NCBI GenBank assembly: GCA_965198115.1
Contig: OZ240241.1
Span: 3,328,001 to 3,392,000, forward strand
Direction of reading: 5' to 3'
From: Candidatus Latescibacterota bacterium
GTDB lineage: Bacteria > Latescibacterota > UBA2968
Length of the DNA: 64,000 nucleotides
Notes under the pieces: generated by a model
The model's database searches: none
Told to the model about the DNA's origin: nothing
The model's input: only the letters and a program-made list of their open reading frames with translations
In this document: positions 33,941 through 48,070 of the stretch, in pieces
How the letters are laid out: the number at the start of each line of letters is the position of its first letter
How positions within the stretch are numbered: position 1 is the first letter of the stretch
Program-made: the position numbers and the translations under genes

Positions 33941-34026
33941 GGTAGTTCCTTCCAAGTGTTGTTTTGATGTGTCAGCCCTAATGTAGGGAAAAACAAACAC
34001 TTGTACAAGGGGACTACCTTTTTTAT

Positions 34027-35446
34027 GGCTATATCCGGATCTCTCAACGAGCTGAAGTGGGTGAAGGTGCCGTGGTTCCTGGCATGGGGGCGCGGTTAGA
34101 GTGTGCGGAACCTCTTCGGAATCTGCTCAGGGATGTTTATGTCTCCGACGGTAAGGAAGATCATATCGTTGAATGCGTCGAGTGTGCGGAATCCGCTGGC
34201 TCGGTTCTTGACGATTTGGACGATTCGGTTGAGGCCTTCGGCGATGGCGTTGGTAAGACGCGTGTTCACGAATGCGAGGACGCCGAAGAAGTGCTGTCGC
34301 AGGGTCCTGACGAACTTTCGCAGGGGTTCACGTCGACTTCTGAGTGCGGACGTCGTCCAGCATTTCAGGAAGCGTTCGGCAGCCCAGGGCGCTTTGTATT
34401 CCCAGAACTGCTCGAACTCGTCCTTGAGTCTCCAGGCTCTATAGATTCGGTAGTTCGCCTTCTCCAGTGCTTTGAGTGTCCGAGTATCCCCTCTGGAGCG
34501 TGTCGCTGAGTGCCGGTAGAGGAGCCATCGGAGGCCCTTCATGGCTTTGCGCTCATCCGGGGCAGCTTCACGCCACTGGTCCTTACGGACCTCGTCAACG
34601 GCGGCATTGAGAGCCTTGACGATGTGAAAGCGATCGAGGACCAGCTTGGCATTCGGACAGTGTTCCTGGATGGCTCCGATGTAAGCTTCGCTCATGTCGC
34701 AGCAGGCCCACTCGATCTTGGATCTCCGGTAGGGACTGAGAGCCTCTGTGAAGAACCGATCGATCGTTTTACGCGCCCTGCCGCGGCCAACCCACACCAC
34801 GCAGGAGCGGTCCAGATCGTAAACGAGCGTGGCGTACCTGTGACGCTTGGCGTAGGAGATCTCGTCGATCCCGATGGTTTTGAGCCCTCGGATACGATGA
34901 CCTTCACGAAGCCGCGTGATGGATCGGTGAAGGAGATCCGACAGCGTCGAGGCAGAGATGCGCAGTAACTCGGACGCCGCCTTCTGCGTCAAGGTCTGGC
35001 AGTAGCGCAGCATGGCATACTCGAAGCGATACGTCACCCGAGAGAACCGCTCCGCCCACGGAATCTCCTCGACCACACGACCGTGGGTAGGACACCGAAT
35101 CTCCCGAGGATGGTAGAGAAGCCAGACCCTCCACCCGCACACCGGAATGTCACGCCACCGACGCGGATGGGGCATTGTGCGGACGATTTTACCTCGACGG
35201 CCGCACTCCGGACAACAACAACCATTCTTATGGGGCTTTACGGCGATGACGAAGCAGCTTCTCCCCTCAAACCACCAGCTGACAACACGGAACCCCTTGA
35301 ATCTCAGCAGTTTCGATAGTAATCTGCTCCCGGTCATAGGTCGCACCCCCTTCGCTTTGATTGTCCTACACACACAACCAAGCGTAGGGAACGATCTATG
35401 ACCTTGTCATTCTATAGTTTCACCGTTGAGAAACCCGGATAGAGCC
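34027..35446 (-). mobile_element. ISL3-family element (copy 2)
   Basis: Same IRs as copy 1; 8-bp TSD TTTTTTAT inside the IS1380 end. Confidence 0.95.
34096..35373 (-). CDS. ISL3-family transposase
   Basis: Near-identical to 20387-21664. Confidence 0.95.
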   Translation of the reverse strand: MCRTIKAKGVRPMTGSRLLSKLLRFKGFRVVSWWFEGRSCFVIAVKPHKNGCCCPECGRRGKIVRTMPHPRRWRDIPVCGWRVWLLYHPREIRCPTHGRVVEEIPWAERFSRVTYRFEYAMLRYCQTLTQKAASELLRISASTLSDLLHRSITRLREGHRIRGLKTIGIDEISYAKRHRYATLVYDLDRSCVVWVGRGRARKTIDRFFTEALSPYRRSKIEWACCDMSEAYIGAIQEHCPNAKLVLDRFHIVKALNAAVDEVRKDQWREAAPDERKAMKGLRWLLYRHSATRSRGDTRTLKALEKANYRIYRAWRLKDEFEQFWEYKAPWAAERFLKCWTTSALRSRREPLRKFVRTLRQHFFGVLAFVNTRLTNAIAEGLNRIVQIVKNRASGFRTLDAFNDMIFLTVGDINIPEQIPKRFRTL

Positions 35447-35470
35447 TTTTTTATGCATAATTCAGGCTAG

Positions 35471-39032: not shown

Positions 39033-39757
39033 GGCTGAAGCCCGACGCTGGAAACACAAAGCCGGCTAAAGCCGGCTATTCCAACCCCGGAAATCGGGAG
39101 AGCTCGAACCCTGTCCGCACCAGCGATTCGCTCGTCTACCTACGTGGCTACGACTACTACAACATCAACTTCTGGCAGAAGCTCAGACGATTCCAATTCG
39201 GAATCGTCGACGACCCCTTCTGAGTACAGCAAGCGTTTCCTTCCACGGATTTATTTTTACCAGGGATTCGTCCCACTCGAACATTGCGTAGCGGCCCAAA
39301 ATAGACCCGGCCAAGAAGCGAACCGGGGTGACAATCGTTGTTCGTTGGTGATGCGCGAAGCGAGAACTCCCAGTAAATCGACCTGCAGATCCTCCTCCTC
39401 CCTTAGCCGCTATCCTCGATCCCGATTCACCCACCGAACCCAACCTCCGTGTTCTCAGTCGTATGTTTTTCGTCTTTTTTTTGAACCGCGCTCCATCGGC
39501 CGGTGTCCTGACAGGTGAACGCCCAGAAAACGCGCGTGTAACCACCTCTCAGGAAGGAGCGTCCAATGTAACCCACGACGCCGGTATCAAGTAGCGATGG
39601 GGTTTTTTGGTGACGTGACAAAAACGTGTAGGCTTCTTGAGTACGTCGCACTTCGACGGAGTTCATCCTGAGCGCAGTCGAAGGGCTCAGTGTGACGTAT
39701 CCATCCTCGGTGTAATCTGTGTGTTCTGTGGTTCCACCCCGTCTTTCAAGGACATCG

Positions 39758-40342
39758 ATGACCGACGAAGACCTCCTCACCGCCATCGCAAAGCAAGATG
39801 CTGATGCCTTCGGGGAGTTCTTCAACCGCTTCGAGCCTCAAGTGATCCGTCACCTGACGCGTATCGTCAGAGATCCGGCAACCGCCGACGATCTGACTCA
39901 AGACGTCTTTTTCCGGGTCTGGGCGCGCGCTGGGCAGTGGTCGGGGCGAGGCAGCGCGCGGAGTTGGCTGCTCACGATCGCCACAAATCTGGCCCTCAAC
40001 CACTTACGCACCGTTAAACGCCGCCGCGAGCAGCCTCTCGACCCTGGACCCGATCCTTACGCCGAAGGCGACGGGACCCACGCCCCCAGCTGGATGATCG
40101 ACGAAGCCGCCGTCGGCGCGGATGAGCAATACGAACAGACCGAGCGACGGCAGTTGCTCAACGGCCTCGTCGACGAGCTGCCCGAAGACAAGCGCGAGGT
40201 CTTACGCCTCGTCTACGACGCCGAAATGGATGTAAGGGATGTCGCCGACCACCTCGGCATCCCAGAAGGCACCGTAAAATCCCGAATGCACCACGCGCGA
40301 CGACGACTGGCCGATCGATGGCGCAACATCGAAAAACCCTGA
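39758..40342 (+). CDS. ECF-type RNA polymerase sigma-70 factor
   Basis: Region 2 ADDLTQDVFFRVW...SWLLTIATNLALNHLR; region 4 LPEDKREVL...VADHLGIPEGTVKSRMHHAR; AAGGA SD. Confidence 0.93.
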   Translation: MTDEDLLTAIAKQDADAFGEFFNRFEPQVIRHLTRIVRDPATADDLTQDVFFRVWARAGQWSGRGSARSWLLTIATNLALNHLRTVKRRREQPLDPGPDPYAEGDGTHAPSWMIDEAAVGADEQYEQTERRQLLNGLVDELPEDKREVLRLVYDAEMDVRDVADHLGIPEGTVKSRMHHARRRLADRWRNIEKP

Positions 40343-40458
40343 ACCACCCTTCGACTACGCTCAGGACAAGCTCCGACACCAAGACACGAAGAAAACCGGA
40401 AGGAAAGGCATGAGCCCCCACTCAGCTTGCGGACATAACCCCCACCTTCTGGGTGAAT

Positions 40459-40511: not shown

Positions 40512-40575
40512 GCTTGGCCGATTACCGACACTTCGACTCGCGCTCAGTGTGACGGTATGTCGGCCTTCCTGAACT

Positions 40576-43500
40576 ATGAACACTCTCAATGAGGTGCGAA
40601 TGACAATCACTCCTGCAACACCCTGGCACAACACCTCCTACCAGACCTTCATCTCGAGCACGCTGCCCGACCTGTTGGCCGATCGTGTCCCGCTCGATGG
40701 CTACAGCGTCAACCGGGTCGACGACTACAACGTCAACGTCGAACTGTCGCTCAGGACGAAGGGCGGCTCGATCGATCTGTCGTTCGCTGACGTGCCGGCC
40801 CCGGATGAACACGGCCTGTTCTTTGTGGACGGACAACAGGAGAAAAATGGCGGCTACCGCGTTGTCGTTCCGTATCCCGACGGGTTCGACCTCACAAAGG
40901 CGAACATCCTGTGCGTCGGCGAACAGTTGGCCGAATTCGTGGAGGCACGACTGGGGGATGCGCCGAACGATCTCGACTGGGATCAGAAGCTGGCGGAAGC
41001 CTGGCTGCCGGTCACCGGCTGGCTGGACACGTTCCTTCGGACCCAGCCCACGTCCCAATTTATCCAGAGCACGAACTGGCTGGACCGCACAACGCATCTT
41101 CGTCGCATCACGCTCGTCCCGATCGCCTTCGCCGAGGGTCCGTCGGAGAAGACGCACATCATACCCTCACTCCCCACGAGATCGCACTACCTGATGTCGC
41201 CCGAAGACGCGGCGGCGGGCTCGAAGCGTGGGTTGACCTGTCCCATCATCCAGCCCGAAGGCCCGAATATGGGTTGGATCTTCGAAGTCGCCCGGGGCGC
41301 GGAGATCAGGGACGGACGGCTCGTCCGCATCGAAGGGGCAGATCCCGCGGACGCGTCCCTCAACGTCGGCTGGAGCGGCTCGATGATTCCCTTCATCGAG
41401 CACACCGACTCCGCCCGCTTGCTAATGGGCGCGAATATGATGCGTCAGTGGATTGCTCCGAGGAACACGGCTGGTCTCCCGTCCGTCCAAACTGCGCAGA
41501 CCTATCCCGAAGATCTCGTCGACGCGCTCTCGAATCCACCCGGCCCGACACCCGAACCTGCGCTCGTCCAGACGGGAACGGAGCCGGATGACGCCGACTA
41601 CTGGGCGGGCTATAACCTGCTGACTGCCTTCACGATGTGGGACGGTGACACGTTCGAGGACGGCGTCGTCTTGTCCGAGTCCGCGGCGGCAAGGATGGCC
41701 TTCCCAGCCGACGTCGATCTCGGTGATAAGTTGAGCACGCGTCACGGCTTCAAGGGCGTCGTGTCCCGTATTCTACCCGACTCTGAAATGCCCGCGCTTC
41801 CCGACGGTACCGCGGTCGACACCATCATTTCGCCGACCAGTCTGATCTCGCGAGTCAACTTTGGTCAGCTGCGAGAAGCTGTGATGGGCCGCATCGCTCA
41901 CGCCGAAGGCCAGCCTGCGGTCGTGCCCGCCTACGAGGCACTGTCAATCGAAGACTTGAAGAGCCGGTTGAAAGGGGTGGGGCTGCCCGAGGATGGAATG
42001 GACCAACTGACACTCGGCGGAGAGGCGCTCCCGCACAGATCGACGGTGGGCTACGTCTACTGGGGGCGCCTCACGCATCTGTCACGGCACAAGCTGCGCG
42101 GTACGGACCACCTACTGGGGCCCGTGCTCTTCGGTGAGCGGCAATACTCAACGCTGAAAGGTCTCAAAGCCTACGCCACGATCGGCGATCTGCTACGACG
42201 CGCAACGGAAGCAGGCAACACCGTCCCGACACTGGACAACGTCACGGCCAAACTCAACGAGGCCGGCATTGTCCTCGAGCGGAATGGAGAGGAAGTCACG
42301 TTCTCGACAAACGGCACGAAAGGCTATACCCTCGCCTCGCCGGTCCCTCACCCCTGGCATCCCGAGGTCGAACTGAGGGCCGTCAGCGAAGGCGAAGGCG
42401 ATCTCTACGACGACGTCGTCGCGGCGGACGAGCGGGTGCGTCGCCTCGACGACAACGCGCCCGCCCCGCTGAAGTCGGCGGCGATCGAGCGTCTTGCCGC
42501 GGCCGTCGGCGACTATCTGGACGCATCCCTCACACCGAGCGATCTAGAAATCGACGCGCGTGTGCCCGATAGCGGCCGTGCCGTCATCGTCCCCGGTGCC
42601 GAGCTCGCACTCGATCAGATCGGTGTCCCTCGCGAAATGGCGTGGACCCTGTTCGGTGAAGACGTCGCGTCGGAGCTAGGCGAGGACGCCGTCGAGAAGC
42701 GAACGAAGGCTGCTACGTCACGTCTGGAGGAAATCGCCAACTCCGCCCATCTCCTGATCCACAAGGGCGTCCACATCACAGCCACGTCTGTGCTCGCTGC
42801 GCGGCCCGTCCTCATCGACGATCCCGTTATCCGCATCCATCCGATGCACTGCGCGCTTCTGGATGCCGACTTCGACGGCGATCAGGTCGCCGTCACGCGG
42901 CTCAAGTCAGAAGACGCCGTTCGCGAATGTGTGGAACGACTTTCCATCGCCGGCCACCTGCGTCACACACCCGACGCGCTTCGAATCCTCATCGGACGGC
43001 CGCACGGAATCAACTGGGGCTTGACCCGGCTTGCCAGAACGGCTGACGGTCGGAAGAAGATGACAGACATAGCCGGCGAAGCGATCGGTGAGGATTACGG
43101 TGGTCGCCGGTCTTATCTCGCCCTGCTCGAGCGCATCTTCGAGCGGGAAGGCGACAACGACGAGGGCTTGGCTAGAACGTTCGCCATCTACGACGGCCTG
43201 ATGCGACTCGGGCTCCAGGCGTGCAAGGAATCGGGCGTCTCCATCAACCCGTTCCTCGGTGCCTCTCTCGATCTGCCCGCGCCACCGCAATCCGACGATC
43301 TCGAATTGATGCATATATACAAGGAAGAACTCATCGCCGCGCTCAATCAGCATTCGGATCCCGATGACGGCGATGTCGGCACCTTCAACAGCTTCCGGCT
43401 CACAGGAACACGCGGCAGCGATGGGCAATACGTCCTCTACTTCGGCGCCATCGGCCACGTCGAGGGCGTCAACGTTCGTCACGGCTACATCAAAGGCCTC

Positions 43501-43740
43501 GACGTCGACGAAACCGCCGCCCTCAGCGCGAGAACAAGAGCCGCCATCGCCAGCGCCAACCGACAGATGGCCTCCTTCGACGATCGCCCGACCCTTCCCG
43601 GCCGCTCCTACGGCGTCATCGCAAGAGCGCGCAGAAGCGATCGCCCTGGCGTCGTCTTCGCACGGGCAGCCGCCAGAGGTGAAGTCGATCCCTTGGAGGA
43701 TGTTGATGCGCGGATCTTGTGTGGCTTGCCGGTGACATAG
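40576..43740 (+). CDS. Miniature single-chain RNA-polymerase-like protein: fused RpoB-core and RpoC-core (two-barrel nucleotidyltransferase)
   Basis: Collinear beta motifs (SQFIQSTNWLDRTTHLRRI, PEGPNMG, RLLMGANMMRQ, FEDGVVLS, GDKLSTRHGFKGVVSRI, LPDGTAVD, SRVNFGQL, VGYVYWGRLTHL) followed by beta-prime motifs (LASPVPHPW, SGRAVIVPG..L.LDQIGVP, IHPMHCALLDADFDGDQVAV, GTRGS, AAARGEVDPL). Confidence 0.9.
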   Translation: MNTLNEVRMTITPATPWHNTSYQTFISSTLPDLLADRVPLDGYSVNRVDDYNVNVELSLRTKGGSIDLSFADVPAPDEHGLFFVDGQQEKNGGYRVVVPYPDGFDLTKANILCVGEQLAEFVEARLGDAPNDLDWDQKLAEAWLPVTGWLDTFLRTQPTSQFIQSTNWLDRTTHLRRITLVPIAFAEGPSEKTHIIPSLPTRSHYLMSPEDAAAGSKRGLTCPIIQPEGPNMGWIFEVARGAEIRDGRLVRIEGADPADASLNVGWSGSMIPFIEHTDSARLLMGANMMRQWIAPRNTAGLPSVQTAQTYPEDLVDALSNPPGPTPEPALVQTGTEPDDADYWAGYNLLTAFTMWDGDTFEDGVVLSESAAARMAFPADVDLGDKLSTRHGFKGVVSRILPDSEMPALPDGTAVDTIISPTSLISRVNFGQLREAVMGRIAHAEGQPAVVPAYEALSIEDLKSRLKGVGLPEDGMDQLTLGGEALPHRSTVGYVYWGRLTHLSRHKLRGTDHLLGPVLFGERQYSTLKGLKAYATIGDLLRRATEAGNTVPTLDNVTAKLNEAGIVLERNGEEVTFSTNGTKGYTLASPVPHPWHPEVELRAVSEGEGDLYDDVVAADERVRRLDDNAPAPLKSAAIERLAAAVGDYLDASLTPSDLEIDARVPDSGRAVIVPGAELALDQIGVPREMAWTLFGEDVASELGEDAVEKRTKAATSRLEEIANSAHLLIHKGVHITATSVLAARPVLIDDPVIRIHPMHCALLDADFDGDQVAVTRLKSEDAVRECVERLSIAGHLRHTPDALRILIGRPHGINWGLTRLARTADGRKKMTDIAGEAIGEDYGGRRSYLALLERIFEREGDNDEGLARTFAIYDGLMRLGLQACKESGVSINPFLGASLDLPAPPQSDDLELMHIYKEELIAALNQHSDPDDGDVGTFNSFRLTGTRGSDGQYVLYFGAIGHVEGVNVRHGYIKGLDVDETAALSARTRAAIASANRQMASFDDRPTLPGRSYGVIARARRSDRPGVVFARAAARGEVDPLEDVDARILCGLPVT

Positions 43741-43825
43741 TCATCTGACCGACATACACGTCAAAGCCGCGGGTTGGTCGAGAGGACCGATCCGCGGCTT
43801 TTATTATCAGAAAGAAGTCGCCTGC

Positions 43826-43999
43826 TTGTCATTTCGACACGGTGTCACCCGCGACCAGGAAACACACCATCGCGATCTGCGGCGACCCGTGGAGAAATTC
43901 CTGCGCCTGGATGCAAGAGAGCCTGTCACGTTGTCCCTTCCCGCAGGGATCTCTCACCCGTGGCGAGGGCCGAGGCTCAAATCGGGTTCGAGATGACAA
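43826..43999. repeat. MITE-like palindromic element
   Basis: Ends TTGTCATTTCGA / TCGAGATGACAA, inner arms GAGAAATTCCTGCG / CGCAGGGATCTCTC; half-sites of the same class (CTCGAAGTGAC, CTCAGGATGAC) at ~22334, 23508, 24865, 39664, 40348. Confidence 0.6.
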
Positions 44000-44518
44000 A
44001 CTAGATGCGCGATCTGGATCCCACACGTCGGTTCACCAAGCTGCTGGGGAAGACTACCCACTCGACGCCTCTTCGCCCGGTGCCCTCGGTGGTAGGTTTT
44101 CAGTGTATTCTGTGTGCTCTGTGGTTCCCTCTCTCACTGGGCAGGCTCACCCAAATCCCGCGGAGTCCTAGGCCAATGGAACTTCTCCTCCCCCGTCAGC
44201 AGCGCCCGATGCTCTTCGGATATGGTCTTCACGAAGTCGGGATCGGGATCGTACCGGTTCCACGCCTGGAACATCGTGGGCATATACCCACCCAGAATGA
44301 GAAGGCGTTCCCTGTTCGACCGGATGATGCCCGCCGAATGCATCAGGGATTCGTAGAAGAGTAGCGTCGAGCCCGCCGGAGCTTCGACCTGATGGATCAT
44401 AGAAGGATCTTCCATTGCCGCATCCACGATCGCATCACGTGAAACGTCGGTCCCCACCTTGTGCGTCCCTGCGATGACCGTCGTCCCGCCGTCATCCGGC
44501 CCTAGATCCGTCAGATTA

Positions 44519-45812
44519 GGGTTTGCCACGAAATAAGTGCTGCACTTTTCAAGGTAATGATCTTACGCTCGGAGTGTGGACGTCGAAACTCTCCGAACGA
44601 AGTATGAAGCCTTGGCTCCGGTGCTGACGGAACGCACGCGTCGTCTGTGGGCCGCCACGGAAGCCGAAGCGTTGGGTCACGGTGGGATCGCGATTGTGGC
44701 TCTGGCGACAGGAATGTCCAGAGAGCGGATCTTTCGTGGCATTCAGGAGTTGAGGTCGGACGAACCTTTGGACCCGGCTCGCATCCGGCGTCCAGGCGGC
44801 GGTCGTAAGCGGAAGGCCGACACGGACCCGACGCTGTGGCAGGACCTGAATGATCTGGTCGAGCCAACGACTGCGGGGTCGCCTGACGACAATCCTCTGA
44901 GATGGACATCGAAGAGCACTCGCAAACTGGCCGCCGAGTTGCAAGCGATGGGGCATTCGGTGAGCCCCAGGATCGTTGCCAATCTCCTGCACGAACACGA
45001 TTACACGCTGCAGGCGAATCGGAAGACAAGGGAGGGATCTGCACACCCGGATCGGGACGCTCAGTTCGTTTACCTCGATGATCGGATTAGCCAGCAGCAG
45101 CAGCAGGGCCTTCCCGTTATCTCGGTGGACACCAAGAAGAAAGAGTTGATCGGCGACTTCAAGAATCCTGGCCGAGAATGGCGACCCAAGGGAGACCCGG
45201 AGCGTGTGAAGGTACACGATTTCATAGTGCCTGCTCAGGGCAAGGCGATCCCTTATGGAGTGTATGATCTGAGCCGTGATGAAGGCTGGGTAAGTGTCGG
45301 TATCGATCACGACACGGCCAGCTTCGCCGTGAATGCGATCCGAAGTTGGTGGAAGAACATGGGACGGCCCGCCTACGGCACTTCGACGCATCTGCTAATC
45401 ACGGCGGACGCAGGCGGCAGCAACGGCGCCAAGACGCGGCTGTGGAAGTGGGAGCTGCAGCGCTTTGCGAATCGCACTGGCCTGACGATCACCGTATGCC
45501 ACTACCCTCCTGGCACTAGTAAGTGGAACAAGATCGAACATCGCCTGTTCTCCTTCATCGCTATGAACTGGCGAGGCAAGCCCCTGGTCAGCCTGGCTGC
45601 AACCGTGAATCTCATTGCCGGAACGACCACTCAAGCCGGTCTCCGAGTACGCTCCGAGATCGACAAGCGACCCTACCCTAACGGGGTCAAGGTGACCGAT
45701 GAACAGATGACCCAAATCGATCTCACTCCGCACGATTTCCACGGCGACTGGAACTACACGATCCGGCCAATGGCTCAACATTGAGATCGACCGTTTATTT
45801 ATTCGCGAACCC
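44519..45812 (+). mobile_element. ISAzo13-family element
   Basis: Ends GGGTTTGC / GCGAACCC; 3-bp TSD TTA. Confidence 0.9.
44576..45784 (+). CDS. ISAzo13-family transposase
   Basis: RIRRPGGGRK, ISVDTKKKELIG, ITADAGGSNG, PPGTSKWNKIEHRLFS. Confidence 0.95.
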   Translation: MDVETLRTKYEALAPVLTERTRRLWAATEAEALGHGGIAIVALATGMSRERIFRGIQELRSDEPLDPARIRRPGGGRKRKADTDPTLWQDLNDLVEPTTAGSPDDNPLRWTSKSTRKLAAELQAMGHSVSPRIVANLLHEHDYTLQANRKTREGSAHPDRDAQFVYLDDRISQQQQQGLPVISVDTKKKELIGDFKNPGREWRPKGDPERVKVHDFIVPAQGKAIPYGVYDLSRDEGWVSVGIDHDTASFAVNAIRSWWKNMGRPAYGTSTHLLITADAGGSNGAKTRLWKWELQRFANRTGLTITVCHYPPGTSKWNKIEHRLFSFIAMNWRGKPLVSLAATVNLIAGTTTQAGLRVRSEIDKRPYPNGVKVTDEQMTQIDLTPHDFHGDWNYTIRPMAQH

Positions 45813-46462
45813 TTAGTCAGCGCCTTGACAAACGAGAAGTGGTAGAGACCCCGTTCCATATGACTGTATGCCGGGTTGATTCCACGATGGAAGCCAAACC
45901 GCTCCCCACCATCGGCCACTGGCCGGCGTATGTGGGCATCCGATTGCTGGAGCCGGGCCGGGCCACCGATGATTTCCTCTGCCATCCCGACAATGAACGG
46001 GCTCGTCAGGTAATCGAAAAAACACTGTGCCAGGTGCGGCAGGTTATCGATCCGGAAGAACTCCTCCGTCGTACTCGTGTTGAAGCAGTTCGGCCCGGGC
46101 ATTTCTCCGTTCCGGCGAAACTGATCCTCTATCTCATACAGCGTCTCCTTCAGCACATCGATCTCGTCCTGCGACAACACCTGTTCGACAATGACGTACC
46201 CGTAGATCTCGATGTGCAATCGCTGAGCGGGCGTCAGCGCGGGAAACGACTTTGCTTTCGGTTCTGCGGTCATTGATTCCGATCCCTTGGTTCCGTGGAC
46301 GTCACAGTGATGCCCATATGATAGGCCGGGCAGCGGCCAAGCCATCGCTCCTCTCACTGCAGTTCCGTAGGAATTCACACTACGATGGTGGTGCGAATGC
46401 GTCGGCCACCGAGACGAGGGACTCAAGCCCACCGCTTGGCCGCAAAAGTCGGGTCGAAAAAT

Positions 46463-47882
46463 GGCTCTATCCGGGTTTCTCAACGGTGAAACTATAGAAT
46501 GACAAGGTCATAGATCGTTCCCTACGCTTGGTTGTGTGTGTAGGACAATCAAAGCGAAGGGGGTGCGACCTATGACCGGGAGCAGATTACTATCGAAACT
46601 GCTGAGATTCAAGGGGTTCCGTGTTGTCAGCTGGTGGTTTGAGGGGAGAAGCTGTTTCGTCATCGCCGTAAAGCCACATAAGAATGGTTGTTGTTGTCCG
46701 GAGTGCGGCCGTCGAGGTAAAATCGTCCGCACAATGCCCCATCCGCGTCGGTGGCGTGACATTCCGGTGTGCGGGTGGAGGGTCTGGCTTCTCTACCATC
46801 CTCGGGAGATTCGGTGTCCTACCCACGGTCGTGTGGTCGAGGAGATTCCGTGGGCGGAGCGGTTCTCTCGGGTGACGTATCGCTTCGAGTATGCCATGCT
46901 GCGCTACTGCCAGACCATGACGCAGAAGGCGGCGTCCGAGTTACTGCGCATCTCTGCCTCGACGCTGTCGGATCTCCGTCACCGATCCATCACGCGGCTT
47001 CGTGAAGGTCATCGTATCCGAGGGCTCAAAACCATCGGGATCGACGAGATCTCCTACGCCAAGCGTCACAGGTACGCCACGCTCGTTTACGATCTGGACC
47101 GCTCCTGCGTGGTGTGGGTTGGCCGCGGCAGGGCGCGTAAAACGATCGATCGGTTCTTCACAGAGGCTCTCAGTCCCTACCGGAGATCCAAGATCGAGTG
47201 GGCCTGCTGCGACATGAGCGAAGCTTACATCGGAGCCATCCAGGAACACTGTCCGAATGCCAAGCTGGTCCTCGATCGCTTTCACATCGTCAAGGCTCTC
47301 AATGCCGCCGTTGACGAGGTCCGTAAGGACCAGTGGCGTAAAGCTGCCCCGGATGAGCGCAAAGCCATGAAGGGCCTCCGATGGCTCCTCTACCGGCACT
47401 CAGCGACACGCTCCAGAGGGGATACTCGGACACTCAAAGCACTGGAGAAGGCGAACTACCGAATCTATAGAGCCTGGAGACTCAAGGACGAGTTCGAGCA
47501 GTTCTGGGAATACAAAGCGCCCTGGGCTGCCGAACGCTTCCTGAAATGCTGGACGACGTCCGCACTCAGAAGTCGACGTGAACCCCTGCGAAAGTTCGTC
47601 AGGACCCTGCGACAGCACTTCTTCGGCGTCCTCGCATTCGTGAACACGCGTCTTACCAACGCCATCGCCGAAGGCCTCAACCGAATCGTCCAAATCGTCA
47701 AGAACCGAGCCAGCGGATTCCGCACACTCGACGCATTCAACGATATGATCTTCCTTACCGTCGGAGACATAAACATCCCTGAGCAGATTCCGAAGAGGTT
47801 CCGCACACGCTAACCGCGCCCCCATGCCAGGAACCACGGCACCTTCACCCACTTCATCTCGTTGAGAGATCCGGATATAGCC
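46463..47882 (+). mobile_element. ISL3-family element (copy 3)
   Basis: Same IRs; 8-bp TSD CGAAAAAT. Confidence 0.95.
46536..47813 (+). CDS. ISL3-family transposase
   Basis: Near-identical to the other two copies. Confidence 0.95.
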   Translation: MCRTIKAKGVRPMTGSRLLSKLLRFKGFRVVSWWFEGRSCFVIAVKPHKNGCCCPECGRRGKIVRTMPHPRRWRDIPVCGWRVWLLYHPREIRCPTHGRVVEEIPWAERFSRVTYRFEYAMLRYCQTMTQKAASELLRISASTLSDLRHRSITRLREGHRIRGLKTIGIDEISYAKRHRYATLVYDLDRSCVVWVGRGRARKTIDRFFTEALSPYRRSKIEWACCDMSEAYIGAIQEHCPNAKLVLDRFHIVKALNAAVDEVRKDQWRKAAPDERKAMKGLRWLLYRHSATRSRGDTRTLKALEKANYRIYRAWRLKDEFEQFWEYKAPWAAERFLKCWTTSALRSRREPLRKFVRTLRQHFFGVLAFVNTRLTNAIAEGLNRIVQIVKNRASGFRTLDAFNDMIFLTVGDINIPEQIPKRFRTR

Positions 47883-48070
47883 CGAAAAATAGACCCCGGC
47901 CAGGAAGCGTACCGGGGTGACAATCACCTTCGTTCATCCCCCAATGTTCTCAGTGTCCTCAGTGGCGCCTTATGGAGCCGGCCCCACACGAACGTAGAGG
48001 TGGTCCGTTCGTGTCTTTCGTGCCTGCCCGCCGTAGCTCCGCGAAGGCGGGTATTTCGTGGTATGCCTTT

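Follow-up and report, generated by a model that had tools for sequence, protein, structure and literature searches.

The window analysed here is a stretch of 64,000 nucleotides from a Candidatus Latescibacterota bacterium (assembly GCA_965198115.1, contig OZ240241.1, positions 3,328,001 to 3,392,000 of the forward strand). It carries a two-gene unit made of a sigma factor of the extracytoplasmic function (ECF) type and, behind it, a mini-core, i.e. a strongly shortened fusion of RNA polymerase (RNAP) subunits beta and beta' in one chain. Bacteria are held to have one RNAP, with an indispensable trigger loop, flap and clamp. Statements below that cite a paper by PMC number refer to excerpts of that paper.

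The first reference is the bacterial RNAP core together with an ECF sigma factor. All alignable segments of the mini-core map in order onto Escherichia coli beta and then beta', and the unit shares the full catalytic residue set and an ECF-type -35/-10 promoter, but the mini-core is one chain with only ~38% of the length of E. coli beta plus beta' (2749 residues) and lacks the trigger loop, flap, lid, rudder, lobe, jaw and zinc sites. Natural RpoBC fusions have the same beta-then-beta' order in one chain (NCBIfam PRK09603 and PRK14844, which we take to be the Helicobacter and Wolbachia fusions); in those bacteria the fusion is the cell's essential polymerase. Their models span ~2840-2890 positions, and where their cut-offs are 5372 and 4632 bits the mini-core reaches 126 and 111; it is short, and canonical rpoB and rpoC are present in its genome. 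An earlier note on this DNA had set the gene apart from full-length natural fusions, which the NCBIfam scores bear out for length.

The nearest architectural parallel, in size and order, is Orf6 of yeast linear plasmids, a 982-aa Rpb2::Rpb1 fusion whose chain has no trigger, rudder or lid (PMC2919709). It works with a second subunit, Orf7, and the pair is drawn with trigger helices and loop (PMC6211774). Unlike the mini-core, Orf6 is of non-bacterial origin and has no sigma factor. Orf7 is the carrier of the trigger helices and loop in that pair; no Orf7-like second subunit is conserved beside the mini-core gene in a neighbourhood comparison across loci. The phage enzymes YonO (~100 kDa), P23-45 gp64/gp96 and phi14:2 gp66 are, like the mini-core, single-chain RNAPs with two barrels. 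They are phage-borne and share few residues with cellular RNAP, and the solved ones keep a bridge helix and the start of a trigger loop (PMC10770324). The mini-core, in contrast, is 30-40% identical to cellular beta/beta' in the core blocks and has no full-length match among the phage records and best viral-contig hits, in agreement with the earlier statement that YonO-type enzymes are far more diverged. Operons of an ECF factor and a soluble anti-sigma factor resemble the unit in having an autoregulated-type promoter, the sigma gene first, the partner directly behind and coupled translation, and ECF regulons confined to themselves exist (SigY/ECF31; PMC7826278 supplement). The partner here, unlike theirs, is an RNAP-core derivative with no known anti-sigma domain.

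The unit lacks defining properties of each of these systems: bacterial core, full-length fusions, phage RNAPs and known anti-sigma operons. No such ECF group appears in the excerpts of the ECF-classification supplement (PMC7826278) or of a review of non-canonical ECF factors (PMC8999054), and those of PMC10770324 make no mention of the mini-core family. A full-text literature search, whose scope excluded subscription papers and bioRxiv supplements, likewise returned no description, so the earlier remark that this is not a described family stands. The sigma plus mini-core unit is real, selected, widespread and undescribed in the literature searched.

A pruned, single-chain RpoB::RpoC family

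The reading frame at 40576-43740 (plus strand) is uninterrupted, with 1054 codons and a stop. All RpoB and then RpoC motifs listed in the earlier note were found in the order it gave, with the GDK...G motif at 41722-41757 and DADFDGD at 42862-42882 exactly as claimed. Its figure of 1054 aa describes the open frame and not the protein, which probably starts at ATG 40600 (Met9), behind a GAGGT Shine-Dalgarno sequence, and would have 1046 aa; the Met9-equivalent start is the one used by most homologs, and the database copy has 1046 aa.

40600..43740, plus strand: mini-core, single-chain pruned RpoB::RpoC, 1046 aa from the probable start, frame open from 40576
40600..42285, plus strand: RpoB-derived half, residues 9-570, by profile alignment, with lobe and flap deleted

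Pfam Rpb2_6 (E 4e-35) and Rpb1_2 (E 7.5e-13) match above their cut-offs, and Rpb2_3 below its cut-off (E 0.004); apart from RNAP families, no other family matched in Pfam and NCBIfam searches, and there was no known anti-sigma domain. Among solved structures, bacterial beta (E 5e-36) and beta' (E 3e-13) match best. An AlphaFold2 model has a pLDDT of 92.2 and a pTM of 0.92, and most of its top hits in Foldseek are beta chains of bacteria and plastids. A contig assembled from a public run, possibly of the same sample, spans 40527-44500 with zero differences, which speaks against a chimeric assembly. Canonical rpoB and rpoC lie elsewhere in the 8.43-Mb single-contig genome, and the mini-core gene is accessory to them. 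The genome also holds a second mini-fusion (C1:1427411-1430617, 38% identical to that of the window), part of a paralogous sigma plus mini-core unit at C1:1427406-1431231 on the minus strand, whose sigma factor is 53% identical to that of the window. At the level of sequence, the mini-core is confirmed as a real, one-chain join of pruned bacterial RpoB and RpoC cores and not an artefact.

About 70 full-length clusters (50% identity) have the same architecture, a second argument against a chimera. A genome scan gave 35 loci in records titled Latescibacterota, Gemmatimonadota, Chloroflexota, Spirochaetales, Kiritimatiellae and Armatimonadia; named proteins, nearly all annotated as hypothetical, extend the family to Poribacteria, Hydrogenedentes and Planctomycetota. 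Within the window's phylum, 66 of 168 genomes have mini-core matches, including 21/21 of one genus, while in the phylum of one Chloroflexota hit 3 of 301 sampled genomes are positive, counting the seed. Identical deletions recur across phyla. In two genera dN/dS is 0.164 (13 sequences) and 0.148 (19 sequences), and it is at most 0.24 in every 100-codon window; among four genomes it is 0.175 for the mini-core, 2.5 times the 0.070 of rpoB, and 0.078 for the sigma gene. The mini-core is chromosomal, present in several phyla and under purifying selection, and the earlier judgement of selection rather than decay is supported by dN/dS, the recurring architecture and the conserved catalytic residues. 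A phage or plasmid origin was considered and rejected: no full-length match is found among the top 80 of 166 hits in viral contigs (best E 3e-18), and 0/68 plasmid and 0/33 phage records cover 80% of the mini-core.

Clusters that agree with the mini-core in size and Pfam content are present in the ESM Atlas, with 135 and 73 members and automatic names only; NCBIfam has no model for the family, and PADLOC 2.0 defence-system models returned 0 families for the mini-core (P0001) and P0004 at E 0.01. Other single-chain RNAPs of 2309 aa (P0137) and 1948 aa (P0146) join alpha, beta and beta' domains, and the 1613-aa P0150 is a shortened beta::beta' that retains Rpb1_5; the Atlas has similar clusters of 1200-1800 aa.

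Kept and lost segments were read from a profile alignment to E. coli RpoB and RpoC (E. coli numbering throughout, element names following established knowledge). Column counts refer to a family alignment of 74 sequences, i.e. 73 near-full-length 50%-identity clusters and the window mini-core, with the shorter fragments among 150 listed sequences omitted.

41656..41661, plus strand: E361/D362, equivalent to beta E813/D814 (second Mg); E in 64/74 and D in 68/74 members
41722..41757, plus strand: GDK motif with K385/K393, equivalent to beta K1065/K1073; K in 67/74 and 70/74
42400..42528, plus strand: beta' clamp helices, where sigma2 docks, with Ala in place of R275 and E295
42862..42882, plus strand: catalytic loop DADFDGD, equivalent to beta' N458-D464; Asp triad intact in 71/74
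43504..43581, plus strand: shortened bridge helix, residues 977-1002, a helix in the model, aligned to beta' 770-795
43609..43731, plus strand: C-terminal segment similar to beta' 1321-1356 (region H / switch 5); mean family conservation 0.67, weak E. coli match (E 0.06)

The beta half retains 24-151 (the weakest piece, probability 75%), 443-584, 655-698, 782-828 and 1056-1340, and has lost the lobe (152-442), the flap (829-1055) and fork loop 2. The beta' half retains ~100-129 (weak), 263-308, 341-493, 567-641, 682-795 and probably 1321-1356; gone are the clamp head and lid (130-262), rudder/switch 2 (309-340), the zinc-binding domain and all of 796-1320, with the trigger loop, jaw and Zn-II, as well as the end of the bridge helix. 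The clamp helices, the dock and part of switch 3 remain. The AlphaFold2 model and profile alignment reveal no large new domain in place of the deleted parts. In 72/74 members, 75-98 residues follow the F-loop glycine to the C-terminus. A loop of 11 residues connects the bridge helix, whose mean conservation is only 0.34, with the C-terminal segment, and no trigger loop follows the helix. The bridge-helix-like segment and region-H-like C-terminus listed earlier are both present, the one shortened and the other a weak match. The earlier claim that the deletions remove whole peripheral domains held only in part: the trigger loop and helices, the full bridge helix, lid, rudder/switch 2, fork loop 2, beta flap, beta' zinc-binding domain and three grips on downstream DNA, all parts of a bacterial core, are missing.

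Of the canonical sigma2-docking residues of beta' (R275, R278, R281 and E295) the mini-core has an incomplete set: Ala stands at R275 in 54/74 and at E295 in 48/74 members, and R278 and R281 stay R or K in 56/74 and 53/74. The equivalent of beta 1078-1092, which we take to be the surface for assembly on the alpha dimer, is conserved (mean 0.76), D1084 being E or D in 52/74. The rifampicin-pocket residues S531 and F514 are not conserved.

The active centre is conserved far above background. Mean conservation is 0.93 for 9 metal/NTP positions and 0.90 for 12 RNA-contact positions, where 12% of 329 polar columns reach 0.85; R678, D814, K1065, K1073, R1106 and H1237 are kept in 73, 68, 67, 70, 73 and 66 of 74. 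The earlier observation of intact Mg aspartates and substrate lysines proved right for the window copy and, with about 90% conservation of the Mg-, NTP- and RNA-binding residues, for most of the family. N458 varies: its column has N in 44, D in 19 and E in 4 of 74, with Asp in the window copy, which also has Lys for R425. With two double-psi barrels, DxDGD and the beta lysines, the mini-core belongs by its sequence to the two-barrel polymerase superfamily, whose nucleotide-adding chemistry it may share. Three of the 74 members (P0005, P0006, P0069) have an altered catalytic Asp triad, two of them with further active-site changes, and are possible inactive sub-lineages.

A co-inherited ECF sigma factor and its promoter

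Two features stand upstream of the mini-core:

39482..39507, plus strand: ECF-type promoter, -35 TGAAC, 15 nt, -10 GGTGTC, predicted target of the sigma factor encoded downstream
39758..40342, plus strand: ECF sigma factor, 194 aa, sigma2 and sigma4 (Pfam Sigma70_r2, r4_2; TIGR02937)

The protein is an ECF factor by its content of sigma2 and sigma4 only and by the conserved -35/-10 motif upstream; it has a conserved linker with an acidic loop, no C-terminal extension, and no longer homologs were found in a search for them. Its D45 and Q48 are invariant (35/35) and E49 is found in 34/35. The linker (conservation 0.64-0.70) is as conserved as sigma2 and sigma4 (0.67-0.68), and dN/dS is 0.08-0.14. 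The sigma gene lies directly upstream of the core gene in 31/35 genome loci (two others lack room and two have no sigma gene) and is upstream in 8/12 metagenome loci, and its stop overlaps the core start in many. Of the 168 genomes of the phylum, 67 are carriers, 61 of them with both genes, five with the core only and one with the sigma only (above threshold, at a contig edge), and 101 have neither; the five core-only genomes consist of two fragments, one frameshifted sigma gene and two deleted sigma genes. Natural deletions take three forms: (i) at L124:824-852 the promoter is retained and the sigma gene lost; (ii) at L022, upstream of 6001, the sigma gene is internally deleted and the core 5'-damaged; (iii) at L015 promoter and sigma gene are both lost and the core frame is intact.

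Sigma and core trees, compared over 36 loci, have 20/33 splits in common, including 13/16 of the well-supported sigma splits, with a rho of 0.87 against a shuffled maximum of 0.28; linkage alone explains such congruence, which is thus no proof of contact. No anti-sigma gene or other neighbour is conserved across phyla beside the pair. With a co-inherited sigma factor and a promoter of its own, this is a two-gene system; the earlier single-gene view was right about the fusion and overlooked both. Two database proteins (P0272, P0277) that seemed to be natural sigma-core fusions are probably frameshift artefacts, one having no sigma4 end and the other clustering with fragments. In most genomes of one genus a BlaI/penicillinase-repressor gene lies 3' of the core in the same orientation (e.g. 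L218:9763-10149).

TGAAC-N15-GGTGTC occurs upstream of the sigma gene in 49/55 loci, and five of the remaining six have a close variant, in three cases with a spacer of 14 nt. The columns of the -35 element rank among the best conserved of the promoter, and the spacing is fixed. Scored with a 26.8-bit matrix from 30 non-redundant sites, the window site is the best hit of the whole genome, having itself been in the training set, and the genome-wide scan gave no excess of sites (14 hits above 15 bits, 7-23 in five permutations). In 21/21 genomes of one genus, which are kin and not independent, the strict pattern is present a single time, at the unit, and the reversed control is found in two. On this basis the mini-core is the only conserved output found. 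A wider regulon was sought and rejected for the window genome; 14 hand-picked sites from five genomes all fall inside reading frames of at least 120 codons, a weak argument in GC-rich DNA. The promoter of the paralogous unit has a 14-nt instead of a 15-nt spacer, a difference that may insulate the two circuits.

Possible roles of the pair

The earlier note called the protein a minimal RNA polymerase. A bacterial-derived, selected beta::beta' fusion it is; as a working polymerase it is at most a candidate, and core elements are lost. We tentatively lean, short of an even chance, towards a sensor or decoy coupled to the sigma factor, with an active site that works slowly and a promoter read by the host polymerase. 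Host RNAP with the unit's ECF sigma factor would read the unit's promoter, making a feedback unit. The host core is the likelier reader, since a -35/-10 promoter needs the flap that the mini-core lacks; deletion of the flap tip prevents -35 binding (PMC8321222). The sigma factor also looks tuned to a canonical core, because it keeps its D/Q/E triad while the mini-core has Ala at two of the four partner residues. In Streptomyces these D/Q/E residues contact R350, R353, R356 and E370 in the coiled coil of beta' (PMC12019637), which map by offset to E. coli R275, R278, R281 and E295, and E. coli substitutions at the two Ala-replaced positions impair holoenzyme formation (PMC8321222).

The mini-core would bind the sigma factor as a polymerase mimic, its intact cleft sensing or absorbing polymerase-cleft ligands. 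Its catalysis would be at most a slow synthesis of short RNA: deletion of the trigger loop in Taq RNAP takes the value in Table 1's rate column from 0.26 down to 0.000017, a ~15,000-fold slowing, and lowers dNTP discrimination ~1100-fold (PMC3874190). The mini-core would be both regulator and output, as it is the unit's only conserved product and the sigma factor's only conserved partner, and since an autoregulated ECF factor that has neither an extension nor another partner requires some brake, the gene coupled to it downstream is the candidate for that role. Nascent RNA displaces the sigma linker in promoter escape; an RNA 3' end, short hybrid, NTP-site antibiotic or phage inhibitor in the mini-core cleft would displace the acidic linker, free the sigma factor and lead to more decoy. 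The mini-core probably still assembles on the host alpha dimer, given the partial conservation of the beta surface, and a normal elongation complex should not hold with lobe, jaw, clamp head, lid and rudder lost. The core of this proposal, a polymerase active centre turned receptor, in which a trigger-loop-less core holds the sigma factor and frees it when a ligand enters the cleft, we put forward more cautiously still.

Several points weigh against the sensor or decoy. With R275 and E295 gone, the mini-core could bind the sigma factor weakly or not at all, to the detriment of the anti-sigma step. YonO is fast and processive without detectable trigger-loop homology (PMC5467207), so that trigger-loop loss is no proof of slowness, and in Streptomyces an ECF open complex is formed although sigma4 and the -35 DNA are disordered (PMC12019637), which makes a flap-less holoenzyme conceivable. 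The sensed ligand is hypothetical, and the near-perfect conservation of NTP and Mg positions fits catalysis at least as well as sensing. The sigma gene is lost or broken beside the mini-core gene in three genomes (in one the mini-core gene is truncated) and one genome has an intact sigma gene before an apparently frameshifted mini-core gene, so that gene loss points both ways. The ABC exporter cargo of some loci (see below) is limited to one class and may be incidental.

Rather unlikely, and next in rank, is a private mini-holoenzyme, in which sigma factor and mini-core, probably with host alpha, transcribe the promoter of the unit and possibly targets outside the consensus, unaffected by rifamycins or by the regulators that act on the main enzyme; at its boldest, this would be a naturally trigger-loop-less, sigma-dependent polymerase of ~115 kDa and recent bacterial origin. 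The complete catalytic set, the confident fold, the clamp helices, the dock and the portion of switch 3 that are left, a sigma linker as conserved as sigma2 and sigma4, the unconserved S531 and F514 and the precedent of YonO all fit such an enzyme, as do the congruent trees (rho 0.87), which would follow from linkage alone. But it would lack a flap to seat sigma4 on the -35 box, which is strongly conserved, as well as the lobe, jaw and clamp head that hold downstream DNA, and would have neither lid nor rudder; trigger-loop loss costs ~10^4-fold in a bacterial core, and a regulatory loop that targets only itself has no obvious benefit.

We think it doubtful that the mini-core is instead a sigma-induced effector that does not bind the sigma factor, i.e. 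a non-processive nucleotidyl transferase that uses primed or single-stranded substrates with relaxed choice of sugar, making short primers or dinucleotides, adding to 3' ends or carrying out pyrophosphorolysis. The RNA 3'-end, NTP and Mg residues are kept while the grips on duplex DNA are lost, N458 is variable (N 44, D 19 of 74), the window copy has Lys for R425, loss of a trigger loop cuts dNTP discrimination ~1100-fold, and the sigma-docking residues are eroded. It would leave an autoregulated sigma factor with no conserved control partner, though, and the overlapping stop and start codons suggest a 1:1 complex and the clamp helices and dock are retained.

A decaying duplicate, selfish passenger or assembly artefact is very improbable and largely refuted: the patchy spread (3/301), a dN/dS 2.5 times that of rpoB, a few broken copies and the altered triad in 3/74 are outweighed by a dN/dS of 0.15-0.16 overall and at most 0.24 per 100-codon window, 21/21 positive genomes in one genus, the same deletions across phyla and no full-length match in the plasmid, phage and viral-contig sets searched, and the flanking ISL3 pair is a matter of chance with 233 copies in the genome.

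Surroundings of the locus and wider meaning

Those ISL3 elements (34020-35452 and 46457-47889) form an inverted pair around the locus. A composite transposon was considered and rejected, as the pair has no matching target duplication and the element occurs 233 times in the genome; the copies are near-identical (97-100%), about one per 36 kb and some in tandem, a very large recent expansion. REP-like short palindromic repeats, each matched 29-40 times in the genome, lie on both sides of the sigma gene at 39306-39336, 39657-39685, 40347-40375 and 40519-40558 and widen the promoter-sigma and sigma-core gaps, which are short in most relatives. Downstream, a PhyH-family gene (44134-46483, minus strand) is apparently interrupted by an ISAzo13-family transposase (44576-45784), and 31000-52000 holds several more PhyH paralogs and IS5, IS1380 and IS256-type transposases.

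At other loci low-GC cargo (~0.46 vs 0.56) lies between the sigma and core genes in the same orientation, encoding ABC exporters of two kinds or a 381-aa protein without a Pfam or PADLOC match. The cargo proteins have 597-620 aa at L207, L220, L221, L222, L224, L226, L229 and L236, 586 aa at L208, and 381-396 aa at L215, L227 and L237. At least three different cargoes occupy one insertion site, and insertion of the ABC exporter genes into the operon is seen in one family.

Of RNAP, evolution has retained in this family just the catalytic centre and some of the sigma dock, under purifying selection and across phyla. If the mini-core transcribes, it would be a natural minimal core that tests the need for trigger loop and flap, and a compact, orthogonal set of polymerase, sigma factor and promoter. 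If it does not, it would be a new type of sigma regulator built from polymerase, and if the receptor reading is true, the cell would monitor attacks on its transcription and answer with more decoy.

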